Assembly (NCBI GenBank): GCA_035084275.1
Contig: CM068772.1
Location: 3,038,001 to 3,102,000, forward strand
DNA from: Hydrolagus colliei
Lineage: Eukaryota
Direction: 5' to 3'
Length of the DNA stretch: 64,000 bases
The first letter of the stretch is position 1, and every line of letters starts with the position of its first letter. The notes beneath the pieces are model-generated. The model made no database searches. It was not told where the DNA came from and saw nothing but the letters and a program-made list of their open reading frames with translations. This document shows, piece after piece, positions 33,401-36,400 of the stretch. A program made the translations under genes and the position numbers.

Positions 33401-36400
33401 CCTGATGCACTTGATTTTCACAGGTTTTTTTAAAAAAAATAAAGCTACTGGAGCAAAATTCCTAGTTTATTTAAGTGCCTCAATTCCGTTTTTTTCTGAA
33501 AATGTCAGCACTATGCGAACCCTCCAGAGATTCAAATCAAATAACATATGCTACAAGTTTCACTGGGTCGCAAGGATGGTGTTTAAGATGCTGCCTATCT
33601 CAACTATAAGGAAGGAAACCAGAAATTGAATTACGCAAGTAACACCCCAGTTAGCCATATGTAGAATAAGATCAAGTGGAGCAATGGGCAGTCTCTCCTC
33701 CTAACTCCACATATCTTAGAGGAGTTAGGAGTGAGACAAAATTTAAACACTAAAATAAAACTTTGATTAGACACAGTAATAGCCATAACAGTGTCAGGAT
33801 TTCAAATAAGCAAAATAACATGATTTGTGTGGGCCTATAAATAGAGCTAAGAATATTACTGATGAAACAGAATTCATCAGGTCTCAAATCTAGGCTATTT
33901 TTGGAGAGGAGAGAAAAACAATATACAAATGGCCAAAACAAAGGCAGCCCAAACAACTATTCCAGATTTTAAAAAAAAGAAGTCTTCATAAACTATCTAA
34001 ATTAACACCCAACTGTTATATCAAATCATCCCAATAAAACTATGAAAACAAATAACAATGAGGTAAACTCACTCGGGTATAGCGTCTGCATACAAATCCA
34101 CAACTATGGTTAATAATTAATTTGGAGTCAAAATTGTATGATTTAAGCCCGATATTGTATTATTGTTCTTCATTCATTAGTTTATTCTCAAAATTTGACA
34201 AAAATGCAAACAACATTATAAAACACAACAGTTTATTTTTCTGAAGAAATATTTCATTGTTAATTGGGTGTAAAATAATCTTCTGATAATCTCGATTCTG
34301 GCATCCTCATGCTTTCTGAAGCTGTAGTCGATCGACATCGCTAAAGTACCAAGTATTAATATGACCCCGAGTCTATGAAGTTTTAATATGGAATATTTTT
34401 CGAAGATGCTAGCTCTTCAAATGAAAAGAAAGATGATCTATCTGTTGAATCGCTTCCATTCTTTCAATGACAGTATCCCCATATACCACTGAATTTCAGC
34501 ACAAGCAGGCAGCTTTATATCAAGGAAGGAGGTTGGAAATCATCAAGTCGCATTCCTTTTGGATGTTGTGACATCAAAACCAGGAATACTCTCCTGTTTC
34601 CTACCCTGTATAAGCACTGCCTCGCTCAATGGTCACCAGTTAATTTGGATCTACTGTCTTAGAAGAGTAAACACTGCGCTCCAGTCTGCGTGCATTCTTG
34701 TTCTGTGGGGATTGTTCCTGAAGAATCAGGATAATCCATCATAAAGGCAATCTTTCTTTTAGAATACAGCTCACACTGGCAGAACCAAGCAGGTACTGGC
34801 TGCACCAGGGCACAGAGTGGCCCAAACTTGCTGACATAGTCAAGGATAACAAGCGAACTGCCCATCTGGCCAGCCTAAACATTTAGGTTACAAAGTGTGG
34901 GAATTGCTAACTTAGAACATACTGAAATTTGGTCAAGTGATCCCGGGAGCAGATTGACCAGAATTTATATGCCCAACTTTAATTGACAGTTTCTTCAAGC
35001 AATCTTTGGAAAAATACTGCTTAAGCTAATACTCTGATTGAAAACAATATCTCCCATGAATTTAGGACTACAGGTAGTTAACTGATTGATATTCAAAAAG
35101 AGATAAGTACAAACCAACAGAGAAAACTAGACTTCCCCTCACTTCAACTTTGTGGCAGCATCTCTTTGATTGACTAATATAATGGCGAGTAACAAGACAT
35201 ATTAAAATCTTCAGAATACATAATGTTATCGAGCAGAGCCTAAATACTATGAGAATATAATACCTGGGCGATGCTTCCAACATCACAAAAATATATAAAT
35301 CTACAACACAAAATAGGGCCATTGGGCCATTTGTGTTCGTGCTGACTCTCATAAAAGCAATCCTAATCCTAATCCTTTCAGTCTCATTTAGGCATATTTT
35401 CCTTTTAGAAACGATTATGCATTCTGTCTCAACCACCACTCCTGGCAGGTATAATTGTGAAAATATCACAGGTGAGATACATCACTTTGATCTCTAACCC
35501 CCCCCACCCACCACAAGCCCTACAACACAGACTACCCATAGCTGCCAAAACTCAGTGGTAATATTGAGGATAATGATGATGAATGAATGAAGAAAAAGGA
35601 ACTCCGCACAGAATTTCTGAGCCTATGTATGCATTAAAAGCCTGGGTAGTCAAGTGTAGTCAATGAAATAGCAAAAAAGCTGAATCAAGAGATTCAGGAG
35701 TTTTTCAGGTTGAATGCGGTGCATGTTAATCTATGCACTGACCGCCAAAGTGTGCACAATGCTCTTCATCAGAGCCGTCCGCACAATCGTAATCTGAAAC
35801 ACAGAAATCAACCGAGACAGGACACAATCGGCAGGGGAAGACAAACAAAGGCAAGCGTTCAAATAATATTGAGACAATAAGACAAAGAGCACTTGAAACG
35901 ACCGCTGCTAAAGAAAACTTTCCAAAACAATGAACAAACAAACAGACAGAGAGAAACAGAGAGGGGGAGAAAATGAAGGAGGGTTGAATCAGCAAATAAT
36001 ACCAACACAAAAAAACTTCTACCAAGAAGTTAAGATCCTAACGTTGCTGCTGTATAAAGACAAAGGATAAAAACATACAAGACTCCCGTTTACATTAATT
36101 TGAGGTACATTGCCTGCATTCCGGCTTTGAAAATGAGATGGTACAAAAGAGCACAGCCAGATCCATGACAAACAGCACCACAAAATTAATGCAGAGAGAA
36201 AAAAGCGAGTTAACATTTTGGATCCATCAATCTGAAACCTTAACTCATTTTCCTCTCTCCATAGATGGTGCCTGATCTGCTTTATATTTCCTGCTTTATG
36301 TTCACAGTTTTTATCTCAGATTTTTTTGATAACCCCAAAGTTAATAGTTGTTGAGAGAACAAAAAGGGCAGGAATTAGTTCTACTGAGATACCAAGAAAC

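Follow-up and report, generated by a model that had tools for sequence, protein, structure and literature searches.

The window, a stretch of 64,000 nucleotides of Hydrolagus colliei DNA, covers approximately exons 3 to 46 of the LRP1 gene on the minus strand, as shown by 41 collinear tblastn matches having more than 70% identity to the LRP1 of Mobula birostris. The first match is taken to be exon 3 on the basis of the known gene structure, and the subsequent exons are numbered by the order of the matches. The resulting exon numbers agree with the 'intron 19' of the paper in which a human LRP1 exon is described (PMC1904267). Intron 19 of the window (36971 to 30753, 6219 nt) is a phase-1 intron and is the longest among the 33 introns with resolved ends. 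It separates the two halves of complement repeat CR6 (Table 1), and because this phase-1 intron splits the repeat in the middle, a cassette exon that encodes half a repeat is possible at this position. The 15 residues at the join of exons 19 and 20 of the window are common to both Mobula LRP1 proteins, which correspond to the skipped form. Among the 27 sequences matched in the Protein Data Bank, there is no full-length LRP1; LRP1 is represented there only by the fragments 1j8e and 2fyj/2fyl.

Table 1. Features of the LRP1 locus in the window that are discussed in the text (coordinates are those of the window).
Feature	Position	Strand	Remarks
LRP1 exon 19, N-terminal half of CR6 (Cys1-Cys4, W-R-C-D)	36972..37052	-	ends TGT GAT GCT G/gtaagt
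Acceptor AG with U/UG-rich pyrimidine tract	35794..35891	-	AG-free zone of 96 nt upstream
51-nt cassette exon (LRP1 exon '19a')	35743..35793	-	phase 1/1, AG/GT-bounded, orthologous 17-aa inserts, human exon
Weak donor GTCAGT	35737..35742	-	4.6 bits
YCAY cluster, candidate Nova-type enhancer	35555..35590	-	6 YCAY in 45 nt, +153 to +188 past the donor
LRP1 exon 20: standard CR6 C-terminal half, 3-residue linker, CR7	30585..30752	-	residues 14-56 match 1j8e
Second, 69-nt cassette exon	25353-25285	-	phase 1/1, ttctatag/.../gttggt; 23 aa, third YWTD propeller region

Within intron 19, a segment of 51 nt encodes 17 amino acids and preserves the reading frame, both flanking introns being in phase 1. 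Its peptide corresponds to the C-terminal half of an LDLa repeat (Cys5, Cys6 and the pattern D-x-D-C-x-D-x-S-D-E), which is followed by a tail of four residues. The acceptor ends in ...ttctgtgtttcag, and the donor reads GCG/gtcagt. The frame-preserving segment had been proposed from a sequence-only reading of this DNA, and its boundaries, phases and splice signals are all as described there. When the splice sites are scored with a matrix built from the 33 resolved junctions of the LRP1 gene of the window itself, 5 of the 33 constitutive donors score lower than the donor of the cassette (leave-one-out), and the acceptor, at 6.0 bits, has 13 of 33 below it and is mid-range for this gene. This combination of a weak donor and a middling acceptor fits an optional exon. 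A six-frame scan of the window finds the motif C.D.SDE.{1,3}C at six sites, five of them in ordinary LRP1 exons and one in an intron, where it is part of the cassette; it is contained in none of 200 intron-length Markov-1 simulations. The paralogy with the start of exon 20, claimed in the same reading, holds at the protein level, where 10 of the 17 residues are alike (by eye), but not at the DNA level, where just 28 of the 51 nt match. The best DNA match of the cassette within the window is with the CR9 exon (28 of 34 nt), and the copying of the cassette from exon 20 is therefore unsupported at the DNA level.

This exon is already known from human LRP1. Leparc and Mitra (2007; PMC1904267) described a novel exon of 51 nt in intron 19 (chr12:55848235-55848285 in their assembly), which was confirmed by cloning, with both junctions sequenced, and the supplement of that paper places its 17-residue peptide between RCDN and DNDCG. 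RT-PCR on 18 tissues, done with exon-specific nested primers and non-quantitative, detected the exon-containing form as a minor form in all tissues but uterus (PMC1904267). The passages of PMC1904267 on LRP1 and its LRP1 supplement rows make no mention of an LDLa half repeat, and no function is assayed in them. By eye, the human peptide is identical to that of the window at 8 of 17 positions and to that of Takifugu at 13 of 17. The two exons are alike in gene, intron, length, phase and junction, and they differ in the tail and at the start of the peptide, where E-K-D of human and teleosts corresponds to D-Y-D of the window. As the gene, the position, the length of 51 nt, the phases (1/1) and the core residues all match, the cassette of the window is the cartilaginous-fish counterpart of the human intron-19 exon. 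The 17-residue insert that the sequence-only reading had suggested for mammals at the CR6 junction is real, being the human exon cloned in 2007. A description of the exon as hidden or new is not supported, since it has been in print from that year. In the literature searched, in which few subscription papers were covered, no follow-up or functional study of the human exon was found, and a term search in text of a 2024 review of LRP1 (PMC11325810) returned no word starting with 'splic', 'isoform' or 'exon'. The exon itself is on record; what is added here is its interpretation as half of an LDLa repeat, the depth of its conservation and a set of exact predictions.

A search with exon 20 identified a Coregonus protein with a 17-residue insert at the CR6 junction, one of 22 named proteins examined. 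The region of this protein was used as the query for a set of relatives, consisting of the best 120 of 247 matches, minus 13 (unnamed, LRP2, sortilin-related and amphioxus proteins), plus the Coregonus protein. Among these 108 relatives (from the best 120 of 247), an exact 17-residue insert is present in 12, all teleosts, the skipped join is present in 75, the junction is irregular in 4, and 17 are unanchored. The sample is biased both ways, as the query contained the insert of a teleost and a single isoform stands for each 90% cluster; for the latter reason, the skipped form seen in the cluster representatives of tetrapods, lungfish, bichir and rays does not equal an absence of the exon in these groups. 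No shark or ray protein with the insert was seen among the 90% cluster representatives examined. In an alignment of 28 full-length proteins, the insert is also found in an LRP1-like protein of the sea lamprey Petromyzon (P0145), previously counted among the unanchored relatives. In a quick tree, P0145 joins a second lamprey LRP1-like protein, beside the LRP1 of jawed vertebrates, with an ambiguous placement of LRP1B. When the region of the lamprey insert is used as the query, the matches are dominated by LRP2 (best 120 of 455), and in the LRP1B-like models examined, the N-terminal half of CR6 is faulty. The carriers include Takifugu, Oryzias, Poecilia, Pangasianodon and Petromyzon, all as NCBI/UniRef gene models; the teleost and lamprey inserts, which are known from gene models only, resemble the insert of the window in insertion point, length and invariant cysteines and acids. 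The jawed-vertebrate-wide range suggested earlier is too narrow, the lamprey protein carrying the insert too.

When the 14 inserts (12 from teleosts, one from lamprey and that of the window) are compared, D3, C4, D6, S8, D9, E10 and C13 are the same throughout, only D or E occurs at position 1, and the tail (positions 14-17) is variable; the human peptide has, by eye, the same seven invariant residues. Insert position, length and phase agree across lamprey, window, teleosts and human, and the non-core residues differ by lineage, the window insert having 7-9 of 17 residues in common with the teleost inserts, little beyond the cysteines and the acidic core. The invariant cysteines and Ca2+ acids imply that the insert is under selection, and the alignment places this selection at exactly the residues needed by the second half of an LDLa repeat. 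With such low similarity outside the core, it is also possible that separate duplications occurred in different lineages. The absence of an orthologous frame-preserving segment from other species, together with that of junction reads, had been named beforehand as grounds for regarding the segment as dead; counterparts exist in human, teleosts and lamprey. The reading of the segment as a genuine, conserved cassette exon of LRP1 is supported. In four fish gene models (P0146, P0155, P0176 and P0184), the half repeat is found with wrong neighbours or as a read-through, which shows that the exon misleads automatic annotation pipelines.

In LDLa repeats, the disulfide bridges are formed between cysteines 1-3, 2-5 and 4-6, and the Ca2+ ligands follow a characteristic pattern. 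When the N-terminal half of CR6 is joined to the cassette, the six cysteines are in register, and the Trp and the D-x-D...D-E Ca2+ ligands are present. Against an LDLa profile trained on 232 LRP2 repeats (training median 53.9 bits), this combination scores 53.3 bits in the window over the full length of the profile (positions 1-37), as compared with 56.4 bits for the normal CR6 and 30.8 bits for the N-terminal half alone. In three teleosts and lamprey, the N-terminal half with the new half scores 53.9-55.5 bits, and the normal CR6 scores 54.0-56.4 bits over the set. Judged by these scores, the new half is a competent partner for the N-terminal half of CR6. The old and new halves are within about 3 bits of each other, and the profile gives no choice of register. 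Six AGs occur within 70 nt of the start of exon 20, all of them out of frame; as there is no in-frame acceptor in this region, inclusion of the cassette is additive and the old half is retained. This also agrees with the proteins that carry the insert and with the 3' junction sequenced in human, in which both halves are kept. Mutually exclusive use of two duplicated exons is ruled out on these same two grounds. The completion of CR6 by the new half, as the sequence-only reading had it, accordingly fits both the profile scores and the retention of the old half.

The insertion point falls between Ca2+ ligands (W-x-C-D-x/D-x-D-C), inside the Ca2+ loop. As the insert keeps every ligand and enters inside this loop, it is the adjacent half that is expected to win: the exon-19 half of CR6 would fold with the new half, forming the Cys2-Cys5 and Cys4-Cys6 bridges with an intact Ca2+ cage, and so give a variant CR6. 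The original exon-20 half would be left as an acidic orphan, its two cysteines, eight residues apart, probably forming a disulfide bridge with each other, and the linker between CR6 and CR7 would grow from 3 to 20 residues (4+13+3). An AlphaFold model of CR5-CR7 of the included form of Takifugu (13-row alignment) is uninformative on the register, having a mean pLDDT of 41.4 with no residue at 70 or above.

Ligand binding by the cluster II doublets has been characterized for RAP. LRP1 has more than 40 ligands, and its linkers comprise 3-10 residues, that of CR6-7 being the shortest (PMC8239462). According to the same source, RAP binds most cluster II doublets, with a KD of 3.8 nM for CR6-7 (3-residue linker) and 3.1 nM for CR7-8 (10-residue linker), and it assists the folding of CR6-7 but not of CR7-8; in docking, D999/D1001 and W994 of CR6 contact RAP lysines (PMC8239462). 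When counted from W994, the first insert residue occupies the place of D999. Insert positions 1-3 are E-K-D in teleosts and human and D-Y-D in the window, and lamprey keeps D at position 1. E-K-D is the CR1 pattern in the three LRP1 proteins compared, and in LRP2 repeats E is found at the D999-equivalent position in 13 of 117 and K at the next position in 2 of 117. In bony vertebrates, inclusion would convert the lysine-binding D999-N1000 into E-K, and the longer CR6-CR7 linker would loosen the doublet that is preferred by RAP during folding. The similar KD values for linkers of 3 and 10 residues make a tuning of binding more likely than an on/off effect, and when it is also considered that RAP uses most cluster II doublets, the receptor as a whole may be little affected. 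The predicted outcome is a minor isoform in which two-site (avidity) binding at CR5-6-7 is retuned. The 'splicing switch' for ligand binding that had been suggested is not upheld, given the low level and the broad tissue range of the human form and the similar RAP affinities at both linker lengths.

The explanation preferred here, to which a probability of about 0.6 is assigned, is that of a vertebrate-wide, selected cassette whose inclusion swaps one half of CR6, orphans the old half, lengthens the linker and tunes ligand binding. Counting against it is the E-K change, which is absent from the window and from lamprey; counting against a strong switch is the minor human isoform, for which nested PCR was needed. 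A more far-reaching version is put forward tentatively, as a minority possibility. In that version, the half-domain swap predates the split of lampreys and jawed vertebrates. Its product would be a receptor that is stable at the cell surface, in which CR6 has a new specificity and the two orphan cysteines lie in a free acidic loop halfway along cluster II. This loop could serve as a hinge that responds to Ca2+ or to redox state, act as a decoy for lysines or take part in thiol exchange. The isoform would be concentrated in certain cells, possibly in neurons through Nova, and would alter the uptake of alpha2-macroglobulin, apoE, tau and protease-inhibitor complexes. An exon kept from lamprey to human at the centre of ligand cluster II means that a second form of the LRP1 ectodomain exists, and the predicted changes (a linker of 20 residues in place of 3, E instead of D999 and two orphan cysteines) are open to CR-doublet binding assays.

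The same two halves can also be arranged differently: CR6 could keep its original halves, with the insert bulging from the Ca2+ loop as an acidic loop closed by a disulfide bridge, or the halves could exchange. The old half scores equal to or slightly better than the new half in four of the five pairs and is highly conserved beside the insert; it would, however, be conserved anyway for the skipped form, and the invariant Ca2+ acids suggest that the insert completes the cage itself. A loop of 17 residues between the Ca2+ ligands should, given the LDLa structure, disrupt the cage, and this arrangement is considered unlikely. If anything slightly less likely is a brake acting at the protein level, by which the extra cysteines would cause mispairing, retention in the endoplasmic reticulum or shedding, resulting in less surface LRP1 rather than in a working variant. 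CR fragments do misfold readily via mislinked cysteines, RAP assists CR6-7 folding (PMC8239462) and the human isoform is minor (PMC1904267), all of which speaks for such a brake. The full Ca2+ motif, kept from lamprey to human, would be superfluous for this purpose, however, and a frameshifting exon would probably be a simpler means to the same end.

The alpha chain of LRP1 is extracellular and beyond the reach of cytosolic kinases. The location of the exon in this chain disfavours its reading as a casein-kinase phosphorylation site, as it was scored in the 2007 screen, where Scansite gave CK1, CK2 and DNA-PK hits (PMC1904267); moreover, the serine concerned belongs to the SDE motif that LDLa repeats share, and this reading is considered very unlikely. 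A dead exon duplicate, or splicing noise, could account for the low human inclusion (PMC1904267) and for the skipped join in 75 of the 108 relatives (best 120 of 247). It is largely refuted by the agreement of position, length and phase in lamprey, window, teleosts and human, together with the seven invariant residues, and is just as improbable.

YCAY clusters downstream of an exon enhance its inclusion. The densest YCAY cluster on the minus strand of the window lies downstream of the weak donor of the cassette (Table 1); none of the 33 constitutive donors has six YCAY within 200 nt, and one has five. According to PMC2014790, a cluster lying no more than 200 nt from a splice site is predictive of regulation by Nova. 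A Nova-enhanced neural exon would be compatible with the preferred explanation, but human expression is broad by RT-PCR (PMC1904267), the zebrafish neural-exon table of PMC12626424, in the rows covered, has a 30-nt LRP1 exon and no 51-nt one, and the YCAY run could be a microsatellite; regulation by Nova is regarded as rather doubtful. The run is made up of TCAT/CAT units and represents a Nova site or else a microsatellite. TGCATG is absent within 300 nt on either side of the cassette. No Lrp1 row is present in 12 of the 15 supplement files on mouse cortex development (PMC5989265), in the five of five files on Nova motoneuron CLIP (PMC6092797) or in 23 of the 27 supplement files of the VastDB paper (PMC5630039). 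In 12 of the 19 supplement files of PMC7935315, LRP1 occurs in expression rows only; in PMC8797185, two of the three LRP1 rows were covered and are fly rows only; the text of PMC2014790 covered mentions Lrp12 alone and no LRP1; and in PMC12727881, LRP1 appears only in a reference. An SRRM3/4 neural microexon was also considered and rejected, the cassette being 51 nt long as compared with 3-27 nt for this class (as given in abstracts).

Alternative exons in the LA-repeat clusters of ApoER2/LRP8 and VLDLR alter the choice of ligand (PMC6213145), and the LRP1 cassette would work in a similar way. According to this source, LA8 of ApoER2 is required for alpha2-macroglobulin binding and interferes with the binding of Reelin, ApoER2/LRP8 also has a 13-residue exon with a furin site, and VLDLR has a form without LA3. 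In those cases, entire repeats or a cleavage site are gained or lost, whereas the LRP1 cassette lands inside a repeat, where it would replace one half and orphan the other; the passages of PMC6213145 on ApoER2 and VLDLR do not describe such a half-domain swap. The smLRP1 form (PMC5491174) also arises by splicing of LRP1, but it uses a terminal exon, 7a, and gives a truncated protein of 296 residues, being unrelated to the cassette in position and mechanism.

Several further features were observed in LRP1 of the window and its relatives. The second cassette exon (Table 1) has an acceptor of 3.8 bits and a donor of 6.7 bits, and its peptide matches a 23-residue insert that the two LRP1 proteins of Mobula have in common. 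The site was located in 18 bony-vertebrate proteins, all of which lack an insert there (2 of 23 proteins were unmatched), and in the sea-lamprey protein P0145 it is occupied by an insert of approximately 16 residues that looks unrelated. In the teleost LRP1 models P0189, P0232, P0131, P0134, P0165 and P0193, a basic insert of 10-13 residues precedes AKGFQHQR of the cytoplasmic tail (approximately Mobula residue 4481); this insert may be the zebrafish 30-nt neural exon DreEX0005588. The lamprey LRP1-like proteins P0145 and P0207, which are approximately 70% identical and group together, have an extra N-terminal LDLa repeat and extra EGF-like sequence near the membrane when compared with the LRP1 of jawed vertebrates.
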